The notes: generated by a model from the letters alone, not told the origin. DNA of 64,000 nt from an uncultured Thermoanaerobaculia bacterium (GCA_964440565.1 CAYTTB010000006.1:3199-67198); one strand, 5' to 3'; positions 42,016 through 57,204 are shown, counted from the stretch's first letter. Numbers and translations are program-made.

Positions 42016-44619
42016 TCACACCCCCCGTCTCGAGAGCACCGCCACGCCCGCGGCGGCGATCAGCAGCACGAGCAGCGCCCTCCCCGCCGGGCCCTGGACG
42101 GGTATGCCCGTGGCGGTGACGCCCGTCCCCTCGACGTACGCCACGTCCGGGCTCGACGGGGCGTCGCTTCTCACCTCGAGCACGGCGGTCCTGGTCCCCT
42201 CGGCGGTGGGCGCGAAGACGATCCTGAGCTCGCACGACCCACCCGGATCGAGCGTCCGGCCCGTGCACCCGTCCGCCGCCACGTCGAAGTCAGCGGGCTC
42301 GCGGCCGGAGAACGTGACCGCGCCGAGGTTCACCGCCGCTCCACCCACGTTCGAGACCGTCAGCACCCGCTCGAGCGACCTCCCGCCCACGGGCACGGCC
42401 CCGAAGACCACGACGCTCGCCGACAGGTCCAGGGAGGGACCCGCGATCACGCCCCGTCCGGCGAGAGCCACGGACACCGAGCCGGCCGGGGCGGCGAGGG
42501 CGATGCGGAGCGACCCCGCCCAACGGCCCGTCCCCTCCGGCCGGAAGCTCACGGACACCGAGCACACGCCGCCCGCCGGCACCGTACCGCCGCAGGTGGA
42601 GCCCACCACCCGGAACGGGGCCGCTGTCGCGACCTCCGACACCGCGAGCGGCCCCGCGCCGACGTTCCGGAGGTTCACCACCAGCGGAGCGCTCTCCACG
42701 CCCACCTCCTGGGGCCCGAAGTCCAGCGCCTCGGGCAGGGCCAGCGGCTGCCCGGCCCCCACCGCGGCGCCGTACCCCTCGAGCGCCACCGTCTGGGGCG
42801 TTCCCGGGGCGTCGGTGCGGAACGCCAGGGTCCCCTCCCGGGCGCCCGGCACCGCCGGCACGAACGTCACCGCGACCGTGCAGCTCTCGCCGGGGGCGAG
42901 CTCCCACGGGCAGGTGCCCGACACACGGAAGTCGCCCGTGGCCTCGACCCCGAAGAGGGCGAGCGGCGCCGACCCGGCGTTGGTGAGCGTGACCTCGCGC
43001 GGCCCGCCCACGGCCCCCACCGCGACGCTGCCGAAGGCGACCGCCGTCGGGTTCACGGCAGCGGCGGGAGCCGCGAGCTGGGTGTCCGAGAGGCGGAACA
43101 CCTCGAGCCGCCCGGTGTTCGCCGAGGCCACCACCAGCCGGCCCACGTCCTCCGCCACGGCAGCGTCGGTGGGCGTCTTCAGCTCGCCCAGCTCGTCACC
43201 GTACGTGCCCAGGATGTCGCGGAGCTGCCCGTCGAGGGTGAAGCTCTGCACCCGGTCCTGGAATGCATCCGCAGCGAACACCAGCCCGCCCGCGCTCGCC
43301 ACCGCTCCCTCGAGCTGGCCGAACTCGCCGGGCCCGCCCCCGAGGCCGCCGAACGACCCCAGGTACGTCCCGGTGCCGTCGTACCGGCGCACCACGCCGG
43401 CCACCGTGTCGGCCACGGCGAAACCACCTCCCGGAAGACCCTCGACGTCACGGGCCCCGAGGAGCTCGCCCGGCCCGCTTCCGTAGCCGCCGAAGCCGAA
43501 CAGCGCCTTCCCGGCCTCGTCGAACACCACGACCCGCCCACGGTCCCCGTAGAGCACCGCGTACCGGCGGCCCGTCCGGTCCACCGCCACGGCCAGCGGC
43601 GACACCGACCCGTCGCCCGGGTCCAGGTCACGCACCGGCCGCCCGAGCCGGTTCACCACCCTCGCCCCCGACGGGGTCGCCAGCACCAGGTTGCCGTCCC
43701 AGTCCACCTCGAGGTCGTGGACCGGCCCGAGCGGGAGAAAGGTCACGACCTCGCCCGAGGCGAGCCCCACCACCGCCACCCCCTCGAGCCCGTCGTCGGC
43801 GACGTACACCAGGCCGCCGGGCCCCGCCGCCACCCGGTGGGGCGCCACCAGCCCCGCGCTGATGAACTTCTCGGGCACGGCGTCGGTCACCGCCACGCCG
43901 ACCGTGGCGGTCGCGATCCCTCCGTTGCCGTCATCGGCGGTGCAGGTGACGGTCACGATCCCAGGGGTGGCCGGGGCCGAGAGCTCCGCGGTGAACGACC
44001 CGGTGGGGGTGATCGTCCCCGCATCGGCCGTCCACGTGAGCGTGACCGGGTCGCCGTCCGGGTCCGACACGGTCGCCGTGATCACGCTTGTCCCGCCGGG
44101 CAGCACCGCCTGCGGATCCGCCACCAGCGCGTCGAACACCGGGGGCTGGTTGCCGCCGGTGGTCACCTGGATCTGGAGGGTGGCGGTGGCGGTCTGCCGC
44201 CCGCCGCAGAGGAAGGTGCCGCTGTCGGCGATGTCCACCGTGATGGTGTAGCTCCCCTCGACGGCCGGCGCCTGCCAGGTGGCGGTGGTGGTGTACGGAG
44301 AGGCGGAGACACCGGGGTCGATGGCGGTGAACGTTCCGCCCGAGGCCGACCACGATGTGAGGTCGGCCCGGATGTACAGTCCACATCCGCTCGTACACGT
44401 GCCGGTGCAGTCGGGGTCGTGGGCGTCCAGCACCAGCGACACCGTGCCACCGGGAGCCACGGACGGCGGGCTCGCGGTGAACGCGTCCACCACCGGCGCC
44501 GCCGCGCGCGCCACCCCCGGGGCGGCGAGCAGCGGGGCCACGATCCCGGCGGCCAGGACGGCGCGCGGGATTCTCCCCAACTCGACCGGCGGAATGCGAA
44601 AAATTCCGCGCTTCGCCAT
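42016..44619 (-). CDS. exported multidomain surface protein: Ig/PKD-like domains + NHL-type propeller + three ASH/choice-of-anchor-D-like beta-sandwich repeats + C-terminal hydrophobic anchor
   Basis: 867 aa from ATG 44619; the 5' 503 codons of track ORF 42016..46128 are antisense to the kinase gene. Signal peptide present. Ig-like modules (TATVSDPDGDPVTLTWTA). NHL-like blades (GSGPGELLGARDV, GGGPGEFGQLEGAV, DRVQSFTLDG). Three repeats of the type FG.V.VG......L.N.G...L........F......C.....PG.SC...V.F.P. The tail reads IPVQGPAGRALLVLLIAAAGVAVLSRRGV. Confidence 0.8.
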   Translation of the reverse strand: MAKRGIFRIPPVELGRIPRAVLAAGIVAPLLAAPGVARAAAPVVDAFTASPPSVAPGGTVSLVLDAHDPDCTGTCTSGCGLYIRADLTSWSASGGTFTAIDPGVSASPYTTTATWQAPAVEGSYTITVDIADSGTFLCGGRQTATATLQIQVTTGGNQPPVFDALVADPQAVLPGGTSVITATVSDPDGDPVTLTWTADAGTITPTGSFTAELSAPATPGIVTVTCTADDGNGGIATATVGVAVTDAVPEKFISAGLVAPHRVAAGPGGLVYVADDGLEGVAVVGLASGEVVTFLPLGPVHDLEVDWDGNLVLATPSGARVVNRLGRPVRDLDPGDGSVSPLAVAVDRTGRRYAVLYGDRGRVVVFDEAGKALFGFGGYGSGPGELLGARDVEGLPGGGFAVADTVAGVVRRYDGTGTYLGSFGGLGGGPGEFGQLEGAVASAGGLVFAADAFQDRVQSFTLDGQLRDILGTYGDELGELKTPTDAAVAEDVGRLVVASANTGRLEVFRLSDTQLAAPAAAVNPTAVAFGSVAVGAVGGPREVTLTNAGSAPLALFGVEATGDFRVSGTCPWELAPGESCTVAVTFVPAVPGAREGTLAFRTDAPGTPQTVALEGYGAAVGAGQPLALPEALDFGPQEVGVESAPLVVNLRNVGAGPLAVSEVATAAPFRVVGSTCGGTVPAGGVCSVSVSFRPEGTGRWAGSLRIALAAPAGSVSVALAGRGVIAGPSLDLSASVVVFGAVPVGGRSLERVLTVSNVGGAAVNLGAVTFSGREPADFDVAADGCTGRTLDPGGSCELRIVFAPTAEGTRTAVLEVRSDAPSSPDVAYVEGTGVTATGIPVQGPAGRALLVLLIAAAGVAVLSRRGV

Positions 44620-44645: not shown

Positions 44646-44661
44646 TGCAACCAGGATGCCA
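44646..44661 (-). promoter_or_regulatory. sigma-54 (-24/-12) promoter of the 12.6-kb minus-strand cytochrome operon
   Basis: The minus strand reads TGGCATCCTGGTTGCA (TGGCAT-N5-TTGCA). It is followed by CGGACCGGGAGGGGGGAGGCCTGCCG and ATG 44619, so the promoter, RBS and start codon are all in register. Confidence 0.75.
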
Positions 44662-44721
44662 GAGCGCGCGCCCCGGCGCCACCCCTCCGCAGCGGGCGTA
44701 CAATCGTCCTCCGGAGGGGGC

Positions 44722-46191
44722 GTGGAGAGAAGCCAACCCAGCACCGGCCGCGCATGGCGGCTTCCGTGGCCGCCGCGGACCGTGTTCGTCGTGATCCCCC
44801 TCCACCTGGTGGCGTTCCTGTTGCTCTACCTCGGCGTGGTCCAGCTCGCGCTGAACCAGGTGACGGTGGCCCACGAGCAGGACATCAAGGTGATGATCCG
44901 GACGGTGGTCGAGGAGCTCCACCCCGCCATGGTGTGCGGCGACGCAGAGAAGGTCCGTGAGCGGCTCGCCCAGTACGTCGCGGCGCACCGGCTGCTGGCT
45001 CTGGAGCTGTACGACCGCCGGGGGCGCCCCCTGGGGCCCACGGCGCGGCAGGACCCCGAGGTGCGGGCGTTCCTCATGGCTCCGGAGCACGAGTCGTACC
45101 GGGTGATCCGCGCCGCGGGCTCGTCGGTGCAGCTCGCCCTGATGCGGATCACGGCGGAGGAGCGGTGCGCGCCCTGCCACACCCCCGGCGAGCCGCTCGG
45201 GGTGGCCTCCGTCGCCCGCGACCTGCGACACGAGCTCGCCGAGACGAAGCGCCGCCTCCGGGTGCACGCGGGGCTCCTCACCGGCGGCTGGATCCTCCTC
45301 GTGGGTCTCCTGAACCTCGTGCTGTCGCGGGCCGCCCGGCGGACCGTGCGGTCGCTCGCCGCCGGCGGCGAGGATGCCAGGCCCTCGCTGGCCATGGACC
45401 CCGTGGCCCTGGAACTCTACCGCTCGCTGCGCGCTACGCTCCGGGCCCGGCGCGAGGAGCGGCGGCGGATGGACGACCACCTCCAGCGCACCGACCGTCT
45501 CGCCACCGTCGGCACCATCGCCGCCGGGATCGCGCACGAGATCAAGAACCCGCTGGCCGGCGTCCAGGGGGCGCTCGAGCTGCTCGTGGAGGAGTGCCAG
45601 GACCACGACCGGCGCGACCTGTTCGAGCGAATGCTGGAGGAGATCCGGCGGGTACAGCGGACCGTGCAGTCGTTGCTCGCCTTCGCGCGGCCCCGGCCCG
45701 TCCAGCCCCGCGTGGCGGACCTCGGCGCCCTGCTGGCCGACGTCGCCGCCCTGCTCGAGCCCGCCTGCCGGCGGCAGGGGATCGAGCTCCGGACCCGCGT
45801 CGCGGCGGGCACCGGAAGCTTCGTGCTGGATCCCGAGCAGATCCGGCAGGTGCTGGTCAACCTGGTCACCAACGCGATGGAGGCCACCGGCCGCGGTGGC
45901 ACCGTCGAGCTGTCGGCGGCGCCGCTCCCGGAAGGTGACGGGGTCGTGCTGGCGGTGCAGGACGACGGCCCGGGAGTCGCCCCGGAGGTGGCCGGACGGC
46001 TGTTCGAGCCGTTCGTGACGACGAAGCTGCACGGCACGGGGCTCGGTCTCGCCGTGGCGCAGCGGATCGTGGAGGAGCACGGGGGCGAGATTCAGGTGGA
46101 GAGCACGCCGGGCCGGACCATCTTCCACATCGTCCTGCCGGCCCGGAGGGGAGGGGAAACGGATGCCGCTGATCCTGATCGTCGAGGATGA
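44722..46191 (+). CDS. sensor histidine kinase (NtrB-like) with a CXXCH heme-c motif in the extracytoplasmic sensor domain
   Basis: In the frame of ORF 41998..46191. TM1 is VFVVIPLHLVAFLLLYLGVV. The ~130-aa loop contains ERCAPCH (45166..45180). TM2 is LLTGGWILLVGLLNLVL. H-box GIAHEIKNPL, N-box VLVNLVTNAME, G-boxes DDGPGV and GTGLGL. Start is uncertain (GTG 44722 after GGAGGGGG; alternatives ATG 44656 and GTG 44782). Confidence 0.85.
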   Translation: MERSQPSTGRAWRLPWPPRTVFVVIPLHLVAFLLLYLGVVQLALNQVTVAHEQDIKVMIRTVVEELHPAMVCGDAEKVRERLAQYVAAHRLLALELYDRRGRPLGPTARQDPEVRAFLMAPEHESYRVIRAAGSSVQLALMRITAEERCAPCHTPGEPLGVASVARDLRHELAETKRRLRVHAGLLTGGWILLVGLLNLVLSRAARRTVRSLAAGGEDARPSLAMDPVALELYRSLRATLRARREERRRMDDHLQRTDRLATVGTIAAGIAHEIKNPLAGVQGALELLVEECQDHDRRDLFERMLEEIRRVQRTVQSLLAFARPRPVQPRVADLGALLADVAALLEPACRRQGIELRTRVAAGTGSFVLDPEQIRQVLVNLVTNAMEATGRGGTVELSAAPLPEGDGVVLAVQDDGPGVAPEVAGRLFEPFVTTKLHGTGLGLAVAQRIVEEHGGEIQVESTPGRTIFHIVLPARRGGETDAADPDRRG

Positions 46192-47524
46192 GGACCTGCT
46201 GCGCTGGTCGCTCCAGCGGCGGCTCGAGAAGGCGGGGCACGAGGTCCACCTCGCGGCGGACCTCGCCGAGGCCGAACGCCACCTGGAGCAGCACCAGCCC
46301 GACCTCCTCCTCCTCGACCTCGCCCTCCCCGACGGTCACGGGCTCGACTTCTTCGAGCGCAACCGGGAGAAGCTGGCGCCCACCGTGGTGATCGTCATGA
46401 CCGCCGTCGGCGAGGTCGAGGACGCGGTCCGGGCGATGAAGCTGGGCGCGCTCGACTTCCTCACCAAGCCCGTGGACCACGACGACCTTCTCGACCTCGT
46501 GCACCGGTCGCTCGAGCGCCGCCAGGAGCAGCTCGACGCGGAGGCGGCGCGGCGCGACCGGCAGCTCCTGATCAGCTCCGACATCGTGGCCCACTCCGAG
46601 GCGTTCCGGCGCACGCTGGCCATCGCGTGCGAGGTGGCCCGGTCGGAGATCGCCACGGTGCTGATCACCGGGGAGAGCGGGACCGGGAAGAACGTCGTGG
46701 CGAGGTACATGCACGCGGTGTCCTCGCGGGCCGAGCGTCCGCTCCTCGAGGTCAACTGTGCGACGCTGCCCGACCAGCTCGTGGAGAGCGAGCTGTTCGG
46801 TCACGAGCGCGGCGCGTTCACCGACGCCAAGACGCTCAAGCGGGGCACCCTGGAGCTCGCCGACGGCGGGACCGTGGTCCTCGACGAGATCGGGGAGCTG
46901 CGGCTGGACGTGCAGGCCAAGCTGCTCCAGTTCCTCGAGAACCGGAGGTTCCGCCGGGTCGGGGGCGTGCGCGAGATCCAGGTGGACACGCGGGTGTTCG
47001 CCCTCACCAACCGCGACCTCACGGCGATGGTGGCCTCGGGCGAGTTCCGCAAGGATCTCTACTACCGGCTCTCGGTCTTCCCCATCGTGGTTCCGCCCCT
47101 TCGCGACCGGCGCGAGGACATCCTCCCGCTCGCGCGTCATTTCCTCCACACCCTCCAGCCGAAGGTGGGACGGCGCTTCGACGGCTTCAGCCGCGAGGCG
47201 GAGAACCGCCTCCTCGCCCACGACTGGCCGGGCAACGTCCGGGAGCTCCGCAACGTCGTGGAGCGGGCCGTGATCCTCGCGCAGGGCCCCACGGTGGGCC
47301 CCGAGTCGCTGGTGCTCGACGTCCGGATGGCGGGCTCCGCGGTGGACGAGTCGTCCGCGGTCCGCGGGATCATCCCCCTGGCCGAGGCGGAGCGCCAGCT
47401 GGTGGAGCGCGCGATGGAGGCCGCCGGAGGCAACCAGACGCGGGCCGCGGAGCTGCTCGGCATCACGCGCGACCAGCTCCGCTACCGGCTCCAGAAGCTC
47501 GGGCTGCTTCCCCGCCGCAAGTGA
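46163..47524 (+). CDS. sigma-54-dependent response regulator (NtrC family bacterial enhancer-binding protein)
   Basis: REC domain (LIVEDE...DLLLLDLALPDG). AAA+ domain with GESGTGKNVVARYMH, the sigma-54 contact loop ESELFGHERGAFTDA and VRELRNVVERA. C-terminal Fis-type HTH RAAELLGITRDQLRYRLQKLG. Confidence 0.92.
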   Translation: MPLILIVEDEDLLRWSLQRRLEKAGHEVHLAADLAEAERHLEQHQPDLLLLDLALPDGHGLDFFERNREKLAPTVVIVMTAVGEVEDAVRAMKLGALDFLTKPVDHDDLLDLVHRSLERRQEQLDAEAARRDRQLLISSDIVAHSEAFRRTLAIACEVARSEIATVLITGESGTGKNVVARYMHAVSSRAERPLLEVNCATLPDQLVESELFGHERGAFTDAKTLKRGTLELADGGTVVLDEIGELRLDVQAKLLQFLENRRFRRVGGVREIQVDTRVFALTNRDLTAMVASGEFRKDLYYRLSVFPIVVPPLRDRREDILPLARHFLHTLQPKVGRRFDGFSREAENRLLAHDWPGNVRELRNVVERAVILAQGPTVGPESLVLDVRMAGSAVDESSAVRGIIPLAEAERQLVERAMEAAGGNQTRAAELLGITRDQLRYRLQKLGLLPRRK

Positions 47525-47526
47525 TC

Positions 47527-47542
47527 CGGCACGCAACTTGCA
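47527..47542 (+). promoter_or_regulatory. sigma-54 (-24/-12) promoter of the pseudo-receiver / 21-heme cytochrome / NHL operon
   Basis: CGGCACGCAACTTGCA matches TGGCACG-N4-TTGCA at every position but the first. It lies 3 nt after the regulator stop and 22 nt before GTG 47564, which has GAAGGAG as its RBS. Confidence 0.65.
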
Positions 47543-47563
47543 GGTCGGCGAGCCCGAAGGAGC

Positions 47564-47983
47564 GTGACGCGGATGCGGCTGATGCTGATGGAGGCGTCGC
47601 CAGTCACCGGCTGGCTGATCCGCCGGCTTCTCCCGCCGGACGTGGAGCTGGTGCAGGTCTCGGATCCCGAGGAGGCCGAGAGGGTGCTGCGCGAGGAGCC
47701 CCTCGACGGCGCCGTCTTCGGGCTCACCACGGCGAGCCTCCCGTGGTCGCGGCTGCGCGACCTGTGCGAGCGCCGGGTCCCCCGGATCCCGCACATGTGG
47801 TATTACTCCCTGTGCGAGGTCCCGGGCGACGGCGAGCTCTCGCCGGAGGCCGCGCCCGAGCTTCCTCCGGTTCTCCTCGAGGAGCTCGAGGAGCGGCTCG
47901 CACGGTTCCTTGCCCGGATCGGGGCGGGCCGCACGGAGCGTCCGGTGCGCGCCAACCCCGGGGAACGGAGGGTACGAGAGTGA
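47564..47983 (+). CDS. small cytoplasmic protein, possibly a degenerate receiver (pseudo-REC) domain
   Basis: 139 aa with very high GC3 throughout. Its RBS sits directly after a sigma-54 promoter. The RLMLMEASPV...VELVQVSDPEEAERVLREEPLDGAVFGL pattern resembles REC beta1-alpha1-beta2-alpha2-beta3, but with Gly where the phospho-acceptor Asp is expected (by-eye alignment). Confidence 0.5.
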   Translation: MTRMRLMLMEASPVTGWLIRRLLPPDVELVQVSDPEEAERVLREEPLDGAVFGLTTASLPWSRLRDLCERRVPRIPHMWYYSLCEVPGDGELSPEAAPELPPVLLEELEERLARFLARIGAGRTERPVRANPGERRVRE

Positions 47984-49689
47984 GGCGTGCGATGCTGCTG
48001 CTGGCGCTGGCCCCGGCCGTGGCGATGGCGGCGCGACACCCGCGGCTGGTCTCGGTGGAGAACACCCGCTGCACCACCTGCCATGCGGAGAAGACGCGCG
48101 GCACGACCGTGCATCCACCCGCGGCCGAGGACTGCACCACGTGCCATGAGATGACCATCGCCCCCTCCGGCACCACCGTGGCGCTGGCCGAGGAGGAGCC
48201 GGCGCTGTGCGTGGGCTGCCACGACGACAAGGCCGCCGCCGCGGAAGGCGAGCTGCCCTCCCCCCACGCCCCGGTCACGGACTCCTGCCTCGACTGCCAC
48301 GACCCGCACGCCACCGACACTCCACATCTCATCACCGCCGACTCGGTACCCGAGCTGTGCACCGGCTGCCACGATCCCGGCGACCTCGAGGGTCCGCACG
48401 GAGGCGTCCTGCCGAGGAACGCCCGGTGCACCGCCTGCCACCTGCCGCACGGCGGACCCAACCCGAAGCTGCTCCGCGCCGCCGGTCAGCACCCGCCGTT
48501 CGCGGAGGGCTCGTGCGACGCGTGCCACCGCAAGCCGCTCGGCCCGCGGATGCGGCTGCGCGGCCGGATCGGCCGGATCTGCTCCTCCTGCCACGGCGAC
48601 CTCACCGAGGGGAGCACGGTCACCCACCCGGCACTGGACCGGCGGCGCAATCGGCGCCAGTGCGTGGCCTGCCACGACCCTCACATGAGCGACGTGGAGC
48701 CGCTGCTGCGCGCCGAGGGACCGGCTCTCTGCGCGAGCTGTCACCCCGGTGAGGCGAAGGCGGCGACGGGGGACGGCGGTCACGCGCCCGCCGCCGAGGC
48801 GTGCACCACGTGCCACCAGCCGCACGCCGCGGCGCGCCGGTACCTCCTCGACGACGCGCCGCCCGAGCTGTGCCTGGGCTGCCACGACGCCGACGACCTG
48901 CGCGCGCCCCATCTCGGGGCCGATCCGGAGTCGCTCACGTGCACCGACTGCCACACCCCGCACGGCTCCGACAACCCGAAGCTCCTCGCCGCGAACCTCC
49001 ACCCTCCGCTGCTCGACGGGTGCGACACCTGCCACGAGGGGGCGTACGACCGTCTCGAGGCCGACGGCGGCTCCGAGCTGTGCCTGGCCTGCCACGACGA
49101 CATCGGCGAGGCGGCGGCGGCGGCCAAGGTCCCGCACCCGGCGATGGAGCTGGCACGGTGCGCCGACTGCCACAACCCGCACGCCTCGCCGCAGGAGCAC
49201 CTGGTGAAGGAGCCCGCGGGTGGCGAATGCCTCGCCTGTCACGACGACATGGGGCCCCGGGAGGGGGAGACCGCGCACGGGGTCATCACGCTGATCGGCT
49301 GCCGCGCATGTCACGAGCCCCACGGCGGACAGCGGCCCAGGCTGCTCCGGGCGGAGGGCGACGCCCTGTGCCTCGCCTGCCACGACGCGAGCCACGCCCC
49401 GGCGCGCGGCAGCTCGCAGCCGGTCACCGTGCTGGGGCGGTTCGAGGTACCGGCGCACGCCGCGCGGCGGATGGCGGTGGTCGAGCTCACCGACGGGAAG
49501 GGGCACCCCGTCAGCGGCCACCGCGCCGTGGGTCCACCCACCCGGCAGGAGGTGGAGCGGGCCGAGACGACCTTCACCGGCACGCTGGGCTGCCTCACCT
49601 GCCACGACCCGCACCGGGGACGGTACAGGCTGCTGCGCTGGGACGCGGAGTCCCCGTTCGCGGCGTGCTCCCACTGCCACCCGAAGTGA
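47980..49689 (+). CDS. 21-heme c-type cytochrome (modular, c7/doubled-CXXCH-like repeats)
   Basis: 569 aa from GTG 47980, which lies 7 nt after GGAGGG and overlaps the upstream stop. Signal VRRAMLLLALAPAVAMA. 21 CXXCH motifs counted, arranged in repeating H-P-P...C..CH / C..CHD / C..CH.PHG..NPKLL units. Confidence 0.9.
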   Translation: MRRAMLLLALAPAVAMAARHPRLVSVENTRCTTCHAEKTRGTTVHPPAAEDCTTCHEMTIAPSGTTVALAEEEPALCVGCHDDKAAAAEGELPSPHAPVTDSCLDCHDPHATDTPHLITADSVPELCTGCHDPGDLEGPHGGVLPRNARCTACHLPHGGPNPKLLRAAGQHPPFAEGSCDACHRKPLGPRMRLRGRIGRICSSCHGDLTEGSTVTHPALDRRRNRRQCVACHDPHMSDVEPLLRAEGPALCASCHPGEAKAATGDGGHAPAAEACTTCHQPHAAARRYLLDDAPPELCLGCHDADDLRAPHLGADPESLTCTDCHTPHGSDNPKLLAANLHPPLLDGCDTCHEGAYDRLEADGGSELCLACHDDIGEAAAAAKVPHPAMELARCADCHNPHASPQEHLVKEPAGGECLACHDDMGPREGETAHGVITLIGCRACHEPHGGQRPRLLRAEGDALCLACHDASHAPARGSSQPVTVLGRFEVPAHAARRMAVVELTDGKGHPVSGHRAVGPPTRQEVERAETTFTGTLGCLTCHDPHRGRYRLLRWDAESPFAACSHCHPK

Positions 49690-49705
49690 GACCGCGGAGG
49701 GACCG

Positions 49706-50746
49706 ATGCGACATCTGACCTGGCGTGTCCTCGCCGCAGCCCTCACGCTCTGGCTCGCCGGCTGCGCCTCCACCGGCCGGCGCCCCGTCCAGGACCCGTA
49801 CGCCGAGTACGTCTGGCCGCCGCCCCCCGACCCGCCCCGGATCCGCCTCGAGACGATCCTCACGGGCCGCGCCGACGTCGAGGCCGAGTCGGGATGGCGG
49901 AAGGCGCTGATCGGGGCCGGCCCGAAGAACCCGTACGACCGGCTCCGCAAGCCGTTCGGCGTGGCGTTCGACGGTCAGGGCCGGATCCTCGTCACCGACA
50001 CCGCGCTCCACGCGCTGGTGCGGTTCGACCGGGAGGGCCACCGCTACGACGTGTTCGGCACCCGCGGGCCCGCCCGGCTCCGCCTGCCGCTGGGTCTCGA
50101 CGTGGCCCCCGACGGGACCGTCTTCGTGGCCGACGCCGGGCGTGCCCAGGTGGTGGCCTACACCGCCGAGGGGAAGCTCGTCGCCCTCTACGGACAGCCC
50201 GGAGAGCTCGTGAACCCCACCGACGTGGCGGTGTCGCCCGACGGCACCCGCCTGTACGTCGCGGATTCCAAGGCGCACCGGATCGTCGTCTACGGCCGCG
50301 CCGACGGGCACCGGGAGGGGGCCTTCGGACGCCGCGGCGAGGGCCCGGGCGAGTTCGCCTTTCCCACCTCGCTCGCCTTCACCCCCGACGGCGACCTCCT
50401 GGTGGTGGACCAGCTCAACTCCAGGGTGCAGCTGCTCACCGACGAGGGCGAGTACCTCGACGAGTTCGGCGGGCTCGGGACCGGCTTCGGGAACTTCGTG
50501 CGCCCCAAGGACGTGGCCGTGGACCGGGAGGGGATCATCTACGTCACCGACGCGGCCTTCAACAACGTCCAGCTGTTCGACTCGGACTTCGAGCTGCTCA
50601 CCTTCGTCGGCGAGGGCGGCGCCGGGCCGGGGCAGTTCCGCATCGCCGCCGGCGTCGCGGCCCACGGCGACCGGTTCGCGGTGGTGGACCAGCTCAACCG
50701 GCGGGTGCAGGTCTTCCGCTACCTCCAGCCCCGCGGTGGGGAATAA
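49706..50746 (+). CDS. NHL-repeat beta-propeller lipoprotein
   Basis: Lipobox LTLWLAGC. Six NHL-like blades, for example FGVAFDGQGRILVTDTALHALVRFD, PLGLDVAPDGTVFVADAGRAQVVAY, PTDVAVSPDGTRLYVADSKAHRIVVY, GPGEFAFPTSLAFTPDGDLLVVDQLNSRVQLL, PKDVAVDREGIIYVTDAAFNNVQLF. Confidence 0.85.
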   Translation: MRHLTWRVLAAALTLWLAGCASTGRRPVQDPYAEYVWPPPPDPPRIRLETILTGRADVEAESGWRKALIGAGPKNPYDRLRKPFGVAFDGQGRILVTDTALHALVRFDREGHRYDVFGTRGPARLRLPLGLDVAPDGTVFVADAGRAQVVAYTAEGKLVALYGQPGELVNPTDVAVSPDGTRLYVADSKAHRIVVYGRADGHREGAFGRRGEGPGEFAFPTSLAFTPDGDLLVVDQLNSRVQLLTDEGEYLDEFGGLGTGFGNFVRPKDVAVDREGIIYVTDAAFNNVQLFDSDFELLTFVGEGGAGPGQFRIAAGVAAHGDRFAVVDQLNRRVQVFRYLQPRGGE

Positions 50747-50943: not shown

Positions 50944-50959
50944 TGGCACGCGCCTTGCA
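50944..50959 (+). promoter_or_regulatory. sigma-54 (-24/-12) promoter of the tetraheme cytochrome / PPIase / barrel / NHL / cytochrome operon
   Basis: TGGCACGCGCCTTGCA is a perfect match to TGGCACG-N4-TTGCA. It lies 59 nt before ATG 51018, with GGGAGGG as the RBS. Confidence 0.8.
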
Positions 50960-51017: not shown

Positions 51018-51665
51018 ATGAAGCGCATCGCAACTGTCACCCTGGCGGTCCTGGCCGCCGCGAGCCTGGCCGGGGCGGGCGTGGTCGGGTCCAAGCACGA
51101 CCTCAGCTCCACCGGCCCGGGGGCCACGACCAACGTGAACCGGGTGTGCGTGTTCTGCCACACCCCGCACCAGAGCGGGACCAACGTGGACCCGCTGTGG
51201 AACCACACCCTGTCCACCGTCACGAGCTACGGCGTGTACTCGTCGTCGACGCTGAACGCCACCCCCACCGACATCGGCGGCGGGAGCGCGGTGTCGAACC
51301 TCTGCATGTCGTGCCACGACGGCACGGTGGCGGTCCACTCGCTCTACAACGAGCCGAACGAGGTGGGCACCATCACCCTCACCTCGGGCGGCAACGTGGA
51401 CAGCAACGGGTTCATGACCGGCACCCCGAACCTGGGCACCGACCTCACCAACGACCACCCGATCAACTTCACCTACGACACCGCGCTGGCCAACGCCGAC
51501 GGCGAGCTGGTGGATCCGGCGACGAACAGCACGGTGGCCGGCCTGCTGTTCAGCGGCACGGTGCAGTGCGCGTCCTGCCACGACCCGCACGACGACACCA
51601 ACGCGCCGTTCCTCGTGATGAGCAACACCAACAGCGCTCTCTGCACCACCTGTCACATCAAGTGA
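51018..51665 (+). CDS. small tetraheme c-type cytochrome (paralog family)
   Basis: 215 aa. Signal MKRIATVTLAVLAAASLAGAG. CXXCH motifs: CVFCH, CMSCH, CASCH, CTTCH. Family motifs: GSKHDLS, VCVFCHTPH, PLWNH, LCMSCHDGT, GTDLTNDHPI, and the C-terminal NSALCTTCHIK. Confidence 0.88.
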   Translation: MKRIATVTLAVLAAASLAGAGVVGSKHDLSSTGPGATTNVNRVCVFCHTPHQSGTNVDPLWNHTLSTVTSYGVYSSSTLNATPTDIGGGSAVSNLCMSCHDGTVAVHSLYNEPNEVGTITLTSGGNVDSNGFMTGTPNLGTDLTNDHPINFTYDTALANADGELVDPATNSTVAGLLFSGTVQCASCHDPHDDTNAPFLVMSNTNSALCTTCHIK

Positions 51666-51738: not shown

Positions 51739-52716
51739 ATGCGACGCGCCACCGTCCTGCTGCTCGCGCTCCCCCTCCTGCTCGCCGCCCGTCCCTCCGG
51801 CCAGGTGGTGGCCCGCGTGGGCGACCGGGTCATCACCCGCGCCCTCCTGGACGCCGCCGTGGACCAGGCCCTCAACTCCCGCTTCCGGCACGCGGCGCTG
51901 ACCCACGAGCGGCGCCTCCAGCTCGAGCGGGAGCAGCTCCGCACGCTGATCCGGAAGGAGCTGTCCGTGCTGGGCGGGCTCGACGCGGGGATGGAGCTGC
52001 CGCTTCAGGAGGCGGAACGGCGGCGGCGCGAGATCCGCGAGCGTCTCGGCCGGAAGCGGTACCGCGAGGGGCTCCGGGCCGCCGGGATGACCGTGCGCCA
52101 GCACCGCCGGGCCATCGCCGAGACCCTGCTCGCCGAGCAGGCCTACCGGCGGTTCGTGAAGGAACGGGCCGCGGTGACCGATGCCGACGTCCGCGCGGCG
52201 TACGACGCCGATCCCGGCCGCTGGCGCCGGCCCGAGGCCCGCCGGCTCCGCCACCTGGTGCTGGCGGTGCCCCCGGGCGCGGACGCCGCCACCGTCGCCC
52301 GCGTGGAGCGGGAGGCGCGGGAGCTCCTCCGCCGGATCCGGGCGGGGGAGCCGTTCGAGAAGCTCGCGGCCGAGCGCAGCGCCGACATGTACCGGATCCG
52401 CGGGGGCGACCTGGGCTGGGTCCACCGGGGCCGGCTGCTGCCGGAGCTCGAGGCGGCGGCGTGGAGCGCGACGGTGGGCGAGGTGGTGGGGCCGATCCGC
52501 ACGGACACCGGCTACCACCTGCTCCAGATCCTCGAGGTCCGGCCCGAGGCGCAGCTGAGCTTCGACGAGGCGGCACCCATGATCCGGAAGAAGCTGGAGG
52601 CCGAGCGGCTCGAGGCCGCCGAGTCGGCGTGGTTCGGCGAGCTGGCCCGCCGCCACCCGGTGGCGGTGCTCGTGCCCGAGCTGGCCGCCGCCTGGGACGG
52701 TGCGGGAGGTCGGTGA
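51739..52716 (+). CDS. exported parvulin-type peptidyl-prolyl cis-trans isomerase (SurA/PpiD-like chaperone)
   Basis: Signal MRRATVLLLALPLLLAA. N-terminal SurA-like helical region. PPIC domain RLRHLVLAVP...FEKLAAERSADMYRIRGGDLGWVHRGRLLPELEAAAWSATVGEVVGPIRTDTGYHLLQI. Confidence 0.85.
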   Translation: MRRATVLLLALPLLLAARPSGQVVARVGDRVITRALLDAAVDQALNSRFRHAALTHERRLQLEREQLRTLIRKELSVLGGLDAGMELPLQEAERRRREIRERLGRKRYREGLRAAGMTVRQHRRAIAETLLAEQAYRRFVKERAAVTDADVRAAYDADPGRWRRPEARRLRHLVLAVPPGADAATVARVEREARELLRRIRAGEPFEKLAAERSADMYRIRGGDLGWVHRGRLLPELEAAAWSATVGEVVGPIRTDTGYHLLQILEVRPEAQLSFDEAAPMIRKKLEAERLEAAESAWFGELARRHPVAVLVPELAAAWDGAGGR

Positions 52717-54487
52717 GGTGGGCGCCCGGCGAGCGCTCCTCCCCATCGTGACGCTGGCGCTGGCGGCCGCGGCCCCCGCCGCGGCGCAGCGGTACGGGCA
52801 GTGGTGGCTGGACGGCCGGATCGGAGCGGAGTACCGCTCGTACGAGAACCGCACCGACGGCGAGCTCGCCTCCCGTTACGACCAGCGGCGCTACCGCCTG
52901 AGCCTGGCCCTCAACGGCTACATCGTCCACCCGGCGCTGGCCTCGTTCCGCCTGGAGCTCGAGGGGATCCTCGACCGGTACCGGGACGGGTTCGGTCTGG
53001 ACAGCGACCGCACCGGGGCGCGGGCGGAGATCCGCCTCTTCCCCGAGGGGTGGTACCCGATCCGGCTGTGGGTGGGACGCACCGCGTACAGCTACGACAC
53101 CCGGGCGACGCCCCGGCAGGGAACGTTCCTGCCCGCCATCCCCGACACCCAGACCGTGGCCGGGGGCCGCCTGAGGTTCAGACGGGGCCCGCTGCGCGGC
53201 ACGCTCCTGGGTGTGGACCGCTCCACGCTGCGCCTGGTGGACGGACGCCGCCAGCGGGACGACCGCGAGTTCGTGGACTGGGCGCCGGGCAACGGCCCGC
53301 TCGGGCACCACTACCGGCTCGAGCACCGCGTGCTCCGCTACGCCGCCACCCCGTACACCCTCGACGACTGGACGTTCAACGGCGACGAGCACGGCGACAT
53401 CGGCCGGGGCTGGCGCTGGGACATGACCGCCGTCGGCGTCCGGCGCGGTTTCGAGGCCGCCGGGACCACCCTCACGACCACCGTGACCCGGCTGGCCAAC
53501 CGGTTCACGCGCCAGACGGCCCACCGCGGCCTGCTCACCCTCGGCTACACCGCCGGCTGGACCTCCTCGGACGCGATCACGAGCTCCAGCCACCTGGTGG
53601 AGGCCCGCTGGGAGCGCGACCTGGGGAAGGGAGTCCGCGCCGGTCCGTTCGCCGCCCTGGCGTACAGCACCGGCGGCGGCAGGTCCTCGAGCAGCCAGCG
53701 CCTGGGAGGGTACCTCACCTGGTCCGGCGCGGCGGGTCCCCTCGACAGCGTGGTCTCCGCCCAGGTGGCGGCGGGACGGTTCGCGCCGCCCGAAGGGCCC
53801 GCGCGGACCTCCAGCTCGCTGGCCCTCGCGACGACCCTCGGCCACGGCACGGAGGAGACGCTGCGCAGCGAGCTGGAGCTCGGCTGGACGCACTCCACCG
53901 CCGACATCGCGGGACCGGAGGCCGCACTGCCCGATCTCGGCGCCGCCGTGATCGGCTCCGCCACCGCCGACAGCACGCGCGCCCGGCTGAGCCTCCGGCG
54001 CCGGTTCGGGAGAACCCGGGCCTACGCCTACGCGGAGCTCCGTCGGCGCGAGGGCCAGAGCCTGCTGCGGGTCGGCCGGTCCACCGTCGAGGGACGGACC
54101 TACTCCGCGCAGGTGGACGGCGGCCGCCTGACGCTCGCCGTCCTGCACACCGAGGTGGACTCCATCGCCGGCTCCCGTCAGCGGGTCGAGGCCGACTCGG
54201 TCTCGCTGGGGTTCCGTCCCTTCAGGGCGCTCTCGCTGCACGCCTCCTACCGCACCGACGTCCGCCATCTCGAGCTCGTCCCCGACGTGGACGGGGAGCA
54301 GCTGCAGGCCCAGCTCACCTTCCACCTCGGGATGCTGGACCTCCGGGCGGAGTTCTACGACAGCCGCGAGCGGCTCGAGGGGGACGGGGATCGCCGCAAC
54401 CGGGGCGTGGTGGTGATCCTCTCGCGCCGCTTCGCGACGCTCCTGCCCATCGTGACGGCGCCCGAGCGGCGGGGGGTGATCCGGTGA
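52700..54487 (+). CDS. putative outer-membrane beta-barrel protein (no family recognised)
   Basis: Signal ALLPIVTLALAAAAPAAAQ. The rest is dominated by alternating-polarity strands rich in R/Y/G/T (RYRLSLALNGYIV, ARAEIRLFPEG, RARLSLRRRFGRTRAYAYAELRR, QLQAQLTFHLGMLDLRAEFYD). A late strand, GVVVILSRRF, ends in Phe. Start is uncertain (52700 or GTG 52718). Confidence 0.55.
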   Translation: MREVGEVGARRALLPIVTLALAAAAPAAAQRYGQWWLDGRIGAEYRSYENRTDGELASRYDQRRYRLSLALNGYIVHPALASFRLELEGILDRYRDGFGLDSDRTGARAEIRLFPEGWYPIRLWVGRTAYSYDTRATPRQGTFLPAIPDTQTVAGGRLRFRRGPLRGTLLGVDRSTLRLVDGRRQRDDREFVDWAPGNGPLGHHYRLEHRVLRYAATPYTLDDWTFNGDEHGDIGRGWRWDMTAVGVRRGFEAAGTTLTTTVTRLANRFTRQTAHRGLLTLGYTAGWTSSDAITSSSHLVEARWERDLGKGVRAGPFAALAYSTGGGRSSSSQRLGGYLTWSGAAGPLDSVVSAQVAAGRFAPPEGPARTSSSLALATTLGHGTEETLRSELELGWTHSTADIAGPEAALPDLGAAVIGSATADSTRARLSLRRRFGRTRAYAYAELRRREGQSLLRVGRSTVEGRTYSAQVDGGRLTLAVLHTEVDSIAGSRQRVEADSVSLGFRPFRALSLHASYRTDVRHLELVPDVDGEQLQAQLTFHLGMLDLRAEFYDSRERLEGDGDRRNRGVVVILSRRFATLLPIVTAPERRGVIR

Positions 54488-55443
54488 GGCGGGCGCTCGT
54501 GACGATACTCGCGGCCGCTCTCGCCGCCTGCACCGCCACGGGAGGCTGGCGGCGCCCCGGCACCACCGTCACCGCGGGACCGGCCACCATCGCCGTGGAG
54601 CGTGTGTTCGCGGGCGGCGGCCGGCGCGGGGTGGTGGGCTGGCTCACGGGACGCCGGCCCGGTCCGGCGCTGGTACGTCCCTACGGGGTGGCGTGGGACG
54701 GCGACGATCTCCTGGTGACCGACCCCGGGGCCGGCCGCGTGGTCCGCATCGGGCCCGGGGGCCGGCTGCGGGGCGGGCCCCGCGGCGGACTCGCCTCGCC
54801 GGTGGGTGTCGCCGTGTGCACCGATGGGATCCTGGTCACGGACTCTCGGGCGGGGACCGTGGTCCGCCTCTCCCGGGGACTGCGGCCCGCCGCACGGCTC
54901 GCCGAGGGGCTCCTCCGCCCCACCGGCATCGCCTGCGTCGGCGGCGCGGTGGTGGTCGCCGAGACCGGCGCCCACCGCCTGGTGGTTCTGGATCCCGGCG
55001 GCGGCCGGCGGACCATCGGGCGCCGTGGGAGCGGACCGGGCGAGTTCAACTTCCCCACCGCGCTCGCCGCCGACGGCGACACCGTCTGGGTGGGTGATAC
55101 CCTCAACTTCCGCCTGCAGCGGATCCGGCTTGCCGACGGGGAGCCGCTCACGGTGTTCGGGCGCCTCGGCGATGCCCCGGGCGAGCTGCCCCGGGTGAAG
55201 GGGATCACCGTGGACCCCGCGGGCCGCCTGTGGGTGACGGAGGAGCGGCTGGACCAGGTGATCCTGTTCCGGAGAGACGGCACGCTGCTGGCCACCGTCG
55301 GCGGATCGGGCCAGGAGCCGGGCCGGTTCGCGTTCCCGGCGGGGATCGCCGCCCGGCCGGACGGCGCGGTGGCGGTGGCGGACTCGCTGAACCGGCGGGT
55401 GCAGGTGCTGCGCCTCGTCGTGGAGGGGGTGGGCCATGGCTGA
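54484..55443 (+). CDS. NHL-repeat beta-propeller lipoprotein
   Basis: In the frame of ORF 52801..55443 from GTG 54484 (GTGA overlap). Lipobox ILAAALAAC. NHL-like blades include PYGVAWDGDDLLVTDPGAGRVVRI, PVGVAVCTDGILVTDSRAGTVVRL, GPGEFNFPTALAADGDTVWVGDTLNFRLQRI, GRFAFPAGIAARPDGAVAVADSLNRRVQVL. Confidence 0.8.
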   Translation: MRRALVTILAAALAACTATGGWRRPGTTVTAGPATIAVERVFAGGGRRGVVGWLTGRRPGPALVRPYGVAWDGDDLLVTDPGAGRVVRIGPGGRLRGGPRGGLASPVGVAVCTDGILVTDSRAGTVVRLSRGLRPAARLAEGLLRPTGIACVGGAVVVAETGAHRLVVLDPGGGRRTIGRRGSGPGEFNFPTALAADGDTVWVGDTLNFRLQRIRLADGEPLTVFGRLGDAPGELPRVKGITVDPAGRLWVTEERLDQVILFRRDGTLLATVGGSGQEPGRFAFPAGIAARPDGAVAVADSLNRRVQVLRLVVEGVGHG

Positions 55444-56116
55444 CGCTCGAGCCCGATGGATCGGCGCCGGGGTCGCGCTGGCGCTCGCCGGCACCGCGCT
55501 GGCGCAGCAGGCCGGCGTCGCCGGCACGCTGCACAACCTCTCCGTGAGCGGACCGGGCGAGGTCAAGTCCCTCACCGAGACCCAGGTGTGCAAGTTCTGC
55601 CACATCCCGCACAGCGCCGTGGTGCCGCAGCCGTTGTGGGGGCACAGGCTCCCGGAGAACGTGCGCTACCGGACGGCCGAGCCGTGGCGTGGCCGCGGCC
55701 AGCGGGAGACGCTCCCGCAGCCGGACGGCGCCTCGCGCTTGTGCCTGTCCTGCCACGACGGGACGGTGGCGCTGGGCGACGTCGCCGGGGAGCCGCGTCC
55801 CATCCCGATGGCCGGCTCGCAGCGGCTGGAGCCGGGACGGCCCGGGTACATCGGGACCGACCTGAGCGGGTCGCACCCGATCTCCTTCCGGGTGACCGAC
55901 CAGGTGCCGCTCGCGCCCGAGCAGGACATGGGCGTCAAGCCGCTCGACGCCATCCGCTCCGATCCGGACGTCCGCCTCGACGCCGAGGGCAAGATGCAGT
56001 GCACCACCTGCCACGATCCGCATTCGGACGCCAACTACAGGCCCGGCGTGACCCCCCACTTCTGGGTCAAGCCCACCGTCACGGAGGTGTGCGCCACATG
56101 CCACGAGCTGCGCTGA
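55436..56116 (+). CDS. small tetraheme c-type cytochrome (divergent paralog of 51018..51665)
   Basis: 226 aa with a signal peptide. CXXCH motifs: CKFCH, CLSCH, CTTCH, CATCH. Family motifs are retained: GTLHNLS, VCKFCHIPH, PLWGH, LCLSCHDGT, GTDLSGSHPI. The ATG overlaps the upstream stop by 8 nt. Confidence 0.85.
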   Translation: MADARARWIGAGVALALAGTALAQQAGVAGTLHNLSVSGPGEVKSLTETQVCKFCHIPHSAVVPQPLWGHRLPENVRYRTAEPWRGRGQRETLPQPDGASRLCLSCHDGTVALGDVAGEPRPIPMAGSQRLEPGRPGYIGTDLSGSHPISFRVTDQVPLAPEQDMGVKPLDAIRSDPDVRLDAEGKMQCTTCHDPHSDANYRPGVTPHFWVKPTVTEVCATCHELR

Positions 56117-57204
56117 GCGCCGCCATCGTCCTCGCGGCGGCAGGCCTCGCCACCGCCGCGAGCCCCCACCTGGACCCGTCCCTGATGCTCGCGGGGTGCG
56201 CCTCGTGTCACGCGGGCCACGGCGCCTCCGGATCGCCGATGCTGCCGTCGGGACAGACCGAGCTGTGCCTGAGCTGCCACGGTTCGGAGAACGACGTGCA
56301 GCGACGGATCGCCGAGGGCGTGCTCGCCGCCGGGGCGGCGCCGCCCCTCCTCGACACCGCGCTGGCGCAGCCACACCGCCACCGTCTCGACGCGGCCGCC
56401 ACCTCGCGCTTCGAGACCCAGGCGGTGACCTGCACCTCCTGCCACGCTCCCCACCGCGGGCTGCCGCCGGCGAGCGACACGGGTCCCGGCCGGAGGAAGC
56501 TGTCGCCACTCGACCCCTCCCGGTTCGAGTTCCAGCTCTGCGAGGGATGCCACGGAGGGGCCGGTGCCGCCACCCAGGACCTGCTCGACATCTCGCGGCT
56601 GCTCAGCCCCGAGAACCGGTCGTTCCATCCCGTGGAGGCGCCCGCACCGGACCGCTCGCCGTCGGTCCGGCCCGAGCTCTCCGGGCAGTACATCAACTGC
56701 ACCGACTGCCACGGCAATGACGACCCGGCCGGGGCACGCGGGCCCCACGGCTCCAGCGTCGAGAAGCTGCTCGTGGCCTCGTACGTGCGGACCGACGGCA
56801 GCCCCGAGTCGGCCGACACCTACGCCCTGTGCTACCGCTGCCACAACCGCGCCGCGCTCCTCTCGGGGAGCGGCCCGTTTCCCGAGCACCGCACGCACGT
56901 GGTGGAGGAGCGCACCGCCTGCGCCACCTGCCACAACCCCCACGGCTCGGTGACCAACCGCGCCCTGATCCGGTTCGGCGAGGAGACCACCCTCGGAGGC
57001 GTGAAGCCCTCCTCCTCCGGGCGCCTCGAGTTCCTCTCCCCGGGCCAGGGCTCCGGGCTGTGCTACCTCACGTGCCACGGGGAGGATCACGATCCGAAGG
57101 GGTACGGCGCCGGCGCGGCCCTGATCGGGCGGACCGGGGAGCCGGTCCGGGTCCTCTCCACGCGGCCGCCCCGACGGCCGGTGGCACGGCCCCCGCGGCG
57201 GTAG
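56098..57204 (+). CDS. multiheme c-type cytochrome (7 CXXCH + 1 CX3CH), homologous to the C-terminal part of the giant cytochrome
   Basis: 368 aa from ATG 56098 in the frame of ORF 55456..57204. Signal MPRAALSAAIVLAAAGLATAA. Heme motifs: CASCH, CLSCH, CTSCH, CEGCH, CTDCH, CYRCH, CATCH and CYLTCH. It shares the NRSFHPV...C.DCH.NDD...GPHGS block with residues ~1337-1396 of the giant protein. Confidence 0.85.
   Translation: MPRAALSAAIVLAAAGLATAASPHLDPSLMLAGCASCHAGHGASGSPMLPSGQTELCLSCHGSENDVQRRIAEGVLAAGAAPPLLDTALAQPHRHRLDAAATSRFETQAVTCTSCHAPHRGLPPASDTGPGRRKLSPLDPSRFEFQLCEGCHGGAGAATQDLLDISRLLSPENRSFHPVEAPAPDRSPSVRPELSGQYINCTDCHGNDDPAGARGPHGSSVEKLLVASYVRTDGSPESADTYALCYRCHNRAALLSGSGPFPEHRTHVVEERTACATCHNPHGSVTNRALIRFGEETTLGGVKPSSSGRLEFLSPGQGSGLCYLTCHGEDHDPKGYGAGAALIGRTGEPVRVLSTRPPRRPVARPPRR

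Follow-up and report, generated by a model that had tools for sequence, protein, structure and literature searches.

We analyzed a 64,000-nt stretch of DNA with a G+C content of 74% from an uncultured Thermoanaerobaculia bacterium (hereafter the window, from whose first letter all coordinates are counted). There, a small open reading frame (ORF), a gene for a c-type cytochrome with 21 hemes, and a gene for an NHL propeller lipoprotein follow each other on the plus strand behind a sigma-54-dependent activator gene (table 1). With intergenic spacings of -4 and +16 nt and Shine–Dalgarno sites, these three genes form a real operon for a degenerate receiver, a 21-heme MtrA-like wire, and an NHL propeller lipoprotein, and this operon is a variant of the already described porin/propeller–cytochrome gene clusters of extracellular electron transfer (EET). 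None of its components is a new kind of system, the association of NHL proteins with cytochromes being already present in the literature; the least-described element is the family of pseudo-receivers to which the small ORF belongs, together with its fixed place between sigma-54 activator and multiheme cytochrome genes. The surrounding plus strand is a run of tightly packed genes, from a sensor kinase gene at 44656 through a heptaheme cytochrome gene at 57204. The nearest relatives of the locus come from metagenome-assembled Acidobacteriota (Thermoanaerobaculia and Polarisedimenticolaceae), and public database records hold no names for these proteins.

A Sigma-54 Promoter between the Activator Gene and the Operon

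The operon is preceded by a -24/-12 promoter motif that begins two bases past the TGA of the activator gene (47522–47524) and fits 10 of the 11 specified bases of TGGCAC-N5-TTGCW, its GG and GC elements being ten bases apart. Over the window, the core GGCAC-N5-TTGC occurs three times against 0.43 times expected, a number reached in none of 100 shuffles, and all three core sites lie on the same strand as a gene start, 22–59 nt upstream of it. A scan of the window with a relaxed consensus returned six sites, four of which (plus-strand sites 30039, 47527, and 50944 and minus-strand site 44661) stand in the right orientation 22–59 nt before a cytochrome/propeller operon. This placement of the motifs suggests that one sigma-54 regulon may span the whole island of cytochrome genes.

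The motif is also present at orthologous positions in related loci, as TGGCACGATCCTTGCT in L001, TGGAACGGAGCTTGCA in L085, and GGGAACGGGCCTTGCA in L077. The first of these is the closest relative with enough flanking sequence (its cytochrome is 59% identical): it carries TGGCAC-N5-TTGC at both equivalent positions, the downstream one at 5696, and keeps the order kinase, activator, small gene, cytochrome, NHL, tetraheme cytochrome, peptidyl-prolyl isomerase (PPIase), and 592-aa protein. The more distant L077 and L085 show GGAAC-N5-TTGCA in the spacer between the activator gene and the small gene. The sigma-54 unit that the original prediction had placed here, on the basis of the same motif, is thus upheld by its enrichment, by its retention in three relatives, and by the activator gene directly upstream. 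No terminator was recognizable between the NHL lipoprotein gene and the next promoter, where the scan returned only GC-rich palindromes without T-runs.

The activator matches the Pfam families Sigma54_activat (E=2e-62), Response_reg (E=2e-27), and HTH_8. Its L1 loop, which makes the sigma-54 contact, reads GAFTDA, not the canonical GAFTGA, and the same variant is found in 17 of 18 related activators encoded beside clusters of this sort. The kinase gene overlaps the activator gene by 29 nt, and its product carries a CXXCH (CAPCH, residue 171) in a periplasmic domain, located between two hydrophobic segments, that matches PF21563 (Mcp40H-20 sensor, a Geobacter MCP-type sensor family). Since the heme-binding motif and the family match fall in the same periplasmic domain, a c-heme redox sensor is plausible, and the domain content suggests that the kinase may control the island in this capacity.

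An Aspartate-Less Pseudo-Receiver as the First Cistron

The small ORF had earlier been delimited as a 139-aa frame opening on a GTG (47564–47983), with a coding-type composition (G+C fraction of 0.90 at third and 0.50 at second codon positions). Because an AAGGAG lies 11 nt upstream of ATG 47573 and most homologues align from residue 4 of the 139-aa frame, this ATG is the likely start, which yields a protein of 136 aa; the stop codon of the gene overlaps the start of the cytochrome gene as GTGA. Pfam and NCBIfam gave no match to the small ORF, even at E≤10, and a word-indexed search found nothing apart from the protein itself. An exhaustive HMMER search, on the other hand, returned 53 cluster representatives (50% identity) of 81–175 aa, save for one repetitive match of 1,496 aa.

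Several lines of evidence assign this family to the receiver fold. When compared with the PDB, a profile of 45 members aligned over its full length with receiver domains (best match PhoP, E=3.6e-10); 164 chains were found at E≤1, and almost all of the 60 listed among them are receiver domains. The family hidden Markov model (HMM) and the REC domain of the neighboring activator align over their entire length (34 bits), and the small ORF is most similar to NtrC-type receivers. From the family alignment, AlphaFold2 (AF2) predicted a beta–alpha–beta–alpha pattern at a predicted local distance difference test (pLDDT) score of 86, beta5 falling within the low-confidence residues 80–100; the family alignment was needed, the model from the single 139-aa sequence being poor (pLDDT 65). 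The top Foldseek matches of the former model are all receivers, among which is the CikA pseudo-receiver. The REC-like nature of the ORF, and the glycine at its phospho-acceptor position, had been proposed in the original prediction, and both are confirmed by these alignments to receiver profiles and structures.

The catalytic positions are all altered in the window protein: the acidic pair (DD) corresponds to E7-A8, the phospho-acceptor Asp to Gly50, the Thr to Y78, and the Lys to P98. Across the family, the phospho-acceptor position is occupied by Asn, Ser, Asp, or Gly, with Asp in only 8 of 45 members. By contrast with this signature, Cys65 is invariant, Trp58 and a PxIP motif are nearly invariant, and the residues conserved in at least 90% of members (Arg2, Pro21, Ala35, Pro44, Trp58, Pro70, and Pro73) lie outside the standard receiver signature. 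According to published definitions, a receiver in which one or more of the DD, T, and K residues are missing is a pseudo-receiver, and one that lacks the phospho-acceptor Asp is an aspartate-less receiver (PMC12632262); by these definitions, the small ORF qualifies as an aspartate-less pseudo-receiver. In all contexts for which DNA was recovered (L001, L077, L081–83, L084, and L085), the pseudo-receiver gene sits directly behind the gene of a sigma-54 activator; wherever the contig continues, that is, in all contexts but L084, the next gene encodes a multiheme cytochrome. For further family members, most contigs were only about 1 kb long.

A 21-Heme Cytochrome Built from Diheme Units

The cytochrome gene most likely starts at GTG 47980, because a GGAGG lies 8 nt before this codon, because the resulting protein begins with an RR-containing signal peptide, and because the start overlaps the stop of the small gene; in the public annotation, the gene is called from ATG 47992, for a product of 565 aa. 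As had been predicted for this signal-peptide protein of 569 aa, the number of CXXCH motifs is exactly 21, and no other heme motif is present. The protein is part of a large, highly uniform family, of which at least 2,400 relatives were found. Among the top matches, all 110 proteins of 550–620 aa have exactly 21 CXXCH, and seven of eight longer ones (710–758 aa) also carry a match to the protease-associated (PA, PF02225) domain, still with 21 hemes. Orthologues with this PA domain are P0073, P0079, P0080, and P0118–P0120, of 715–740 aa and exactly 21 hemes. In the 110 orthologues, conservation reaches 95% or more at 42 Cys and at 42 His, including 21 His outside the motifs, one per heme, and at no Met; on this basis, all 21 hemes are predicted to be bis-His ligated.

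The family matches place the protein with MtrA and DmsE. The Pfam doubled-CXXCH domain is found in 11 stretches (290 bits), and the NCBIfam model TIGR03508 of the DmsE/MtrA decahemes scores 195.2 bits against a cut-off of 192.2, in five stretches. The cytochrome c7 equivalog NF043011 of NCBIfam reaches 18 bits against a cut-off of 120, and Pfam Cytochrome_C7 (PF14522) matches in six stretches, for 85 bits in total, beneath much stronger doubled-CXXCH matches. The sole PDB sequence match is 6r2q chain A (E=5e-15); we take this entry to be the Shewanella baltica MtrCAB complex and its 333-aa chain A to be MtrA. The PDB table labels the chain “Cystathionine beta-synthase,” which looks like a depositor or database naming artifact.

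To describe internal repetition, the sequence context of each heme was compared with that of every other, both in the single protein and in the 110-sequence profile, with a permutation test on the profile matrix. Similarity was elevated at lags of seven (z=4.5), nine (z=2.9), and two hemes (z=2.8), and no triheme similarity was seen, the z-scores being -1.05 at three hemes and -2.5 at six. The hemes belong to two alternating types, “CxxCH-xPH...LL” and “L-CxxCH-D...H,” and three hemes of the form “HPP...G-CDxCH” (hemes 2, 7, and 14) break the alternation; the repeat motifs that had first been grouped in threes are these two types with their three interruptions. In 80 more distant loci, the heme numbers of the relatives group into discrete classes of 16 hemes (40 loci), 21 (8 loci), 26 (12 loci), and 42 (15 loci). 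The 16-heme proteins of Terriglobales can be matched heme for heme to the 21-heme protein save for a single five-heme block, hemes 4–8, which has the same type pattern as hemes 11–15, and this recurrence of the pattern explains the lag-7 signal. Together, the lag signals, the alternating types, and the 16-heme alignment indicate a modular protein of diheme units with a five-heme block; judged by this alignment, adding one block of five hemes to a 16-heme relative gives the 21-heme protein. A plain duplication (2 x 21) was also considered for the 42-heme relatives and rejected, as the positions of “HPP-type” hemes in L014 do not fit it.

NHL Propellers as Recurrent Neighbors of the Cytochrome

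The third gene encodes a protein (NHL_A) with a signal peptide and a LAGC lipobox at residues 17–20. It matches Pfam NHL in five stretches (E=1.7e-26), as well as DUF5128, and five blades recognized by regular expression plus a degenerate sixth fit the six-bladed propeller families; compared with the NHL propellers of the PDB, it matches the NHL domain of TRIM71 with E=1e-55. The six-blade NHL lipoprotein announced at this position is therefore genuine. The claim that such a pairing recurs three times in the island holds in part: NHL_A and a second lipoprotein (NHL_B) are clear NHL proteins, but the third candidate, of 867 aa, consists mainly of Ig-like domains, and its matches to NHL (E=0.05) and DUF5128 (E=0.02) are below threshold.

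With regard to the idea of NHL proteins as dedicated cytochrome partners, NHL genes out of synteny with cytochrome genes in relatives had been named beforehand as an observation that would speak against it. We sought NHL homologues in the flanks of 80 loci encoding cytochrome relatives (L001–L080), which come from Acidobacteriota, Desulfobacterota, Nitrospirota, Eisenbacteria, Gemmatimonadota, and other phyla. A homologue lies within the flanks at 68 of the 80 loci, and at 44 of them the NHL gene is directly adjacent to the cytochrome gene, almost always immediately downstream and on the same strand. Synteny thus supports the pairing. The propeller may serve as scaffold, chaperone, or docking partner, a role already proposed in the literature (PMC5815863; bioRxiv 10.1101/2022.05.06.490989).

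Genomic Surroundings

Downstream of NHL_A, the next sigma-54 promoter heads a second plus-strand unit (51018–57204) with gene spacings of -19 to +73 nt, whose synteny is kept in L001, L003–L006, and L012. The 595-aa protein of this unit, a putative outer-membrane barrel, is devoid of hydrophobic helices and shows some 25 amphipathic dyad segments by a crude strand count and a conserved C-terminal RRGVIR in place of a terminal aromatic residue; only five homologues were found in 5.8 billion clusters. On the minus strand, a divergent operon encodes the 867-aa Ig/propeller protein, a 5-heme cytochrome, and a 13-heme cytochrome, directly downstream of which lie genes for a B12-binding radical-SAM protein, a CopD-like protein, CcsA, and ResB (32058–36438), the latter pair belonging to system II cytochrome c maturation. 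An HD-GAF gene also lies on the minus strand beyond this operon. CcsA and radical-SAM genes recur near related clusters, as in L014.

Other genes were noticed upstream of the 21-heme gene in two related loci without the kinase, activator, and pseudo-receiver genes. L002 (3491–7407) has there, to judge by the N-terminal sequences, an apparent 4Fe-4S subunit and an apparent integral-membrane subunit, and two small c-type cytochromes, and L009 (4473–6941) has an apparent large oxidoreductase with a Tat signal. These are candidate electron entry points.

Table 1. Features of the sigma-54-associated cytochrome island, in window coordinates.
Feature	Coordinates	Strand	Remarks
Aspartate-less pseudo-receiver, 136 aa, stand-alone REC fold	47573..47983	+	Family profile, AF2, Foldseek, catalytic positions
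21-heme c-type cytochrome, 569 aa, Sec signal peptide, doubled-CXXCH units of MtrA/DmsE type	47980..49689	+	
NHL_A, six-bladed NHL beta-propeller lipoprotein, 346 aa	49706..50746	+	Lipobox LAGC; 16 nt after cytochrome gene
Sigma-54 (-24/-12) promoter CGGCACGCAACTTGCA	47527..47542	+	31 nt before ATG 47573
Sigma-54-dependent response regulator (REC, AAA+ sigma-54 interaction domain, AAA-lid, Fis-type helix-turn-helix)	46163..47524	+	Pfam
Sensor histidine kinase, periplasmic domain with one CXXCH	44656..46191	+	Pfam HisKA, HATPase_c, PF21563; start codon uncertain
Next sigma-54 promoter TGGCACGCGCCTTGCA	50944..50959	+	59 nt before tetraheme gene 51018; heads downstream unit
Tetraheme cytochrome	51018..51665	+	
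PpiC/SurA-like PPIase	51739..52716	+	Pfam
595-aa putative outer-membrane barrel, signal peptide	52700..54487	+	Barrel fold putative
NHL_B, second NHL lipoprotein	54484..55443	+	Clear NHL
Tetraheme cytochrome	55436..56116	+	
Heptaheme cytochrome	56098..57204	+	
Sigma-54-like site TGGCATCCTGGTTGCA	44661..44646	-	10/11 specified bases, relaxed scan; 27 nt before divergent operon (start 44619)
867-aa Ig-domain/propeller protein	42016..44619	-	Mainly Ig-like domains; propeller matches sub-threshold
Weaker sigma-54-type site	32050..32035	-	125 nt before HD-GAF gene
Sigma-54-type site	30039..30054	+	Precedes 5-heme cytochrome gene (30113)

Discussion

Taken together, our observations lead us to a model in which a sigma-54-driven EET operon combines a feedback pseudo-receiver, a linear 21-heme wire, and an NHL anchor or dock, a model in which, as a whole, we place slightly better than even confidence. 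The locus would be the second of at least three or four sigma-54 transcription units that jointly make up an EET island. The periplasmic c-heme kinase would phosphorylate the adjoining NtrC-type activator, which would in turn fire the -24/-12 promoter located just past its own stop codon. The first product, a cytoplasmic aspartate-less receiver that could not be phosphorylated, may then bind the kinase or the receiver of the activator and feed back on the system, in the manner of FixT and Osp; such feedback is the function that we infer as most likely, because the synthesis of the protein depends on the system's own output. The second product, exported by the Sec pathway and all bis-His, would most likely form a single linear wire about twice as long as MtrA, which would be enough to bridge much of the periplasm and/or to thread an outer-membrane barrel; the place of this wire, like the direction of electron flow along it, is our inference. 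NHL_A, translated right after the cytochrome, would most likely anchor or dock the wire at the outer membrane, and the remaining parts, namely a tetraheme cytochrome, a PPIase, the putative barrel, NHL_B, and two further cytochromes, would come from the next sigma-54 unit.

Several observations weigh against this model. No clear -24/-12 motif was found in the corresponding spacers of L081 and L084, and when the 260-nt regions preceding six sigma-54 sites (four from the window and two from L001) were searched, no convincing activator-binding motif common to them emerged, only one 9-mer recurring at three of the sites. The kinase, activator, and pseudo-receiver genes are absent from the closer cytochrome orthologues L002, L003, L009, and L004–L006, whose clusters open directly with the cytochrome gene, behind unrelated upstream genes; the regulatory module is therefore a lineage-specific addition that is not needed for the conduit itself. 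As for the conduit, the 595-aa protein gave no meaningful match with Pfam (E≤10), with a single-sequence search of the PDB, or with a seven-sequence profile against the PDB, and its barrel fold is proposed from its position, its composition, and the count of amphipathic strands. Finally, the cluster yielded no identifiable gene for an inner-membrane quinol oxidase.

The nature and the location of the wire can each be read otherwise. The original prediction noted that 21 equals 7 x 3 and likened the protein to a polymer of c7-type triheme domains such as GSU1996, in which case it could act as a periplasmic capacitor. The divisibility by three, the PF14522 matches, in which three consecutive hemes fit the c7 model, and the fact that a storage role is possible for any long multiheme protein are in line with this view, but the internal repeat analysis gives significant similarity at lags 2 and 7 and none at lags 3 and 6, the c7 equivalog stays far under its cut-off when the doubled-CXXCH and DmsE/MtrA models score 290 and 195 bits, and the relatives differ by five-heme blocks, not by three. 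Moreover, each GSU1996 domain contains one His-Met heme, a feature at odds with the lack of conserved Met here. We therefore abandon the c7 polymer, which has become highly improbable. A cell-surface location, where the cytochrome would be an extracellular wire and the NHL lipoprotein a surface anchor or a module for adhesion to minerals or electrodes instead of a periplasmic dock, seems unlikely to us, though it draws on parallels: the related undecaheme UetJ is predicted to be extracellular and bar-shaped and a Geobacter metallireducens NHL protein has been linked to adhesion (bioRxiv 10.1101/2022.05.06.490989), and the island encodes large Ig-domain proteins of surface type. What decides us against it is that the best family and the sole solved homologue are of the periplasmic, barrel-inserted MtrA/DmsE type, and that the cytochrome has a plain Sec signal peptide, without lipobox, and no adjoining secretion-system gene.

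The two partners of the wire call for the same scrutiny. The NHL propeller might be an enzyme or a cofactor-binding redox partner and no passive scaffold, for instance one that acts on a substrate in the periplasm or outside the cell and exchanges electrons with the cytochrome, as donor or acceptor: some propellers of the superfamily are catalytic, weak matches to peptidyl-alpha-hydroxyglycine lyase, SMP-30/gluconolactonase, and hydrazine synthase beta are seen, and the close coupling of the genes is what one would expect of an enzyme and its redox partner. However, the top-ranking matches are to NHL domains that bind protein or RNA, such as those of TRIM71 and PknD, the threshold of no catalytic family is reached, and the presence of two to three paralogous NHL proteins in a single island better fits a structural role, so that we consider an enzymatic propeller quite improbable. 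Similarly, the small ORF could be seen as a decaying, functionless duplicate of the activator receiver, or as a mere leader for the translational coupling of the cytochrome, given its resemblance to NtrC-type receivers and to the REC domain next door, the loss of every catalytic residue in the window copy, and the lack of the small gene at many cytochrome-bearing loci. Decay or a leader function is nevertheless hard to reconcile with the 53 cluster representatives, with an invariant Cys65 and conserved residues that are foreign to the receiver signature, with a coding-type third-position composition and a confident fold, or with a fixed position in at least six contexts, the window included; this explanation is accordingly very improbable in our eyes.

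Within the preferred model of a regulated, linear 21-heme conduit, a bolder proposal can be made, which we hold to be rather doubtful in its full extent. The aspartate-less receivers with the invariant Cys and near-invariant Trp would be an undescribed family dedicated to EET regulation, closing from the first cistron a feedback loop between the periplasmic c-heme kinase and the sigma-54 activator, and perhaps sensing the cytoplasmic redox state through the Cys; in parallel, the wires would evolve in discrete steps of 16, 21, 26, and 42 hemes, the step from 16 to 21 being one block of five, and this would point to selection for length, as a molecular ruler for the cell envelope.

More generally, the Acidobacteriota abound in soils, sediments, and peat, but signs that these bacteria carry out EET are only now emerging (bioRxiv 10.64898/2026.05.27.727921). 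The locus offers a complete, compact, and testable set of parts, comprising a heme-based kinase, a sigma-54 activator with several promoters, a pseudo-receiver, a 21-heme wire, and NHL partners. It also corrects a tempting mis-annotation, long doubled-CXXCH cytochromes being MtrA-like chains and not c7 polymers. Two hypotheses arise from the locus, one on feedback by the pseudo-receiver on the kinase or activator and one on wire length changing in five-heme blocks.

Comparison with Known Systems

On the regulatory side, the window protein meets the definition of the pseudo-receiver/aspartate-less receiver class (PMC12632262, PMC4395418) and resembles FixT (PMC7078487) and Osp (PMC9430884) in being a stand-alone receiver fold. 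Each of these two proteins inhibits the very two-component system that drives its expression, and the likeness of function here is drawn from gene position alone. The window protein differs from them in having one invariant Cys and no four-Cys Fe-S motif, and its partner activator is sigma-54-dependent, with an EET cytochrome operon as output.

On the side of the conduit, MtrA/DmsE (TIGR03508; PDB 6R2Q chain A) is both the best-scoring curated family and the sole solved sequence homologue of the cytochrome, and the two have in common diheme units with doubled CXXCH, hemes with bis-His ligation, and a signal peptide of the Sec type. The decaheme family has 10 hemes, however, against 21 here, and the next gene in the window encodes an NHL lipoprotein instead of a porin of MtrB/PioB type, the putative barrel being encoded three genes downstream and having no Pfam match to MtrB. 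Closer in size, by their description, are the PCC3 cytochromes of Sideroxydans and Gallionellaceae, which are linear, have 21–27 hemes, are predicted to span the periplasm, and belong to a porin–cytochrome cluster; besides a porin, published accounts of these clusters list an extracellular cytochrome and an inner-membrane protein, and mention no genes for NHL proteins, a PPIase, or a tetraheme cytochrome (PMC10734462).

The pairing with propellers has its counterpart in Desulfovibrio ferrophilus IS5, where multiheme cytochromes are co-encoded and co-expressed with NHL propellers (DFE_448-451 and DFE_461-465), the propellers being proposed to stabilize an outer-membrane cytochrome complex and one cytochrome being suggested to be MtrA-like (PMC5815863). 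The likeness, established by description, is that of multiheme cytochrome genes beside NHL propeller genes. Heme numbers and regulation differ, and the D. ferrophilus propellers are proposed to take the stabilizing role that the barrel has in iron reducers, when in the window a putative barrel is present too. In peat Acidobacteriota, conserved “porin-scaffold-cytochrome” clusters with cytochromes of 8–13 hemes are reported in the same preprint (bioRxiv 10.64898/2026.05.27.727921).

Finally, the uet cluster of Candidatus Tenderia electrophaga, also found in Gallionella (bioRxiv 10.1101/2022.05.06.490989; PMC10734462), parallels the island in several respects, the likeness being one of domain content and gene order with the Tenderia side taken from published descriptions. 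The order tetraheme cytochrome, PPIase, and large outer-membrane protein (uetABC) is that of the island with its putative barrel. Both also contain proteins with NHL repeats (UetH/I) and a long cytochrome of the bar-type, doubled-CXXCH kind (UetJ), with the system II maturation genes CcsA/ResB in the vicinity. The differences are that the triheme c7 proteins UetDEG and the cupredoxin UetF were not found among the scanned cluster ORFs of the window, and that UetJ has 11–12 hemes when the cytochrome has 21 here. In addition, the island belongs to Acidobacteriota and adds to this common plan a c-heme sensor kinase, a sigma-54 activator, and a pseudo-receiver.

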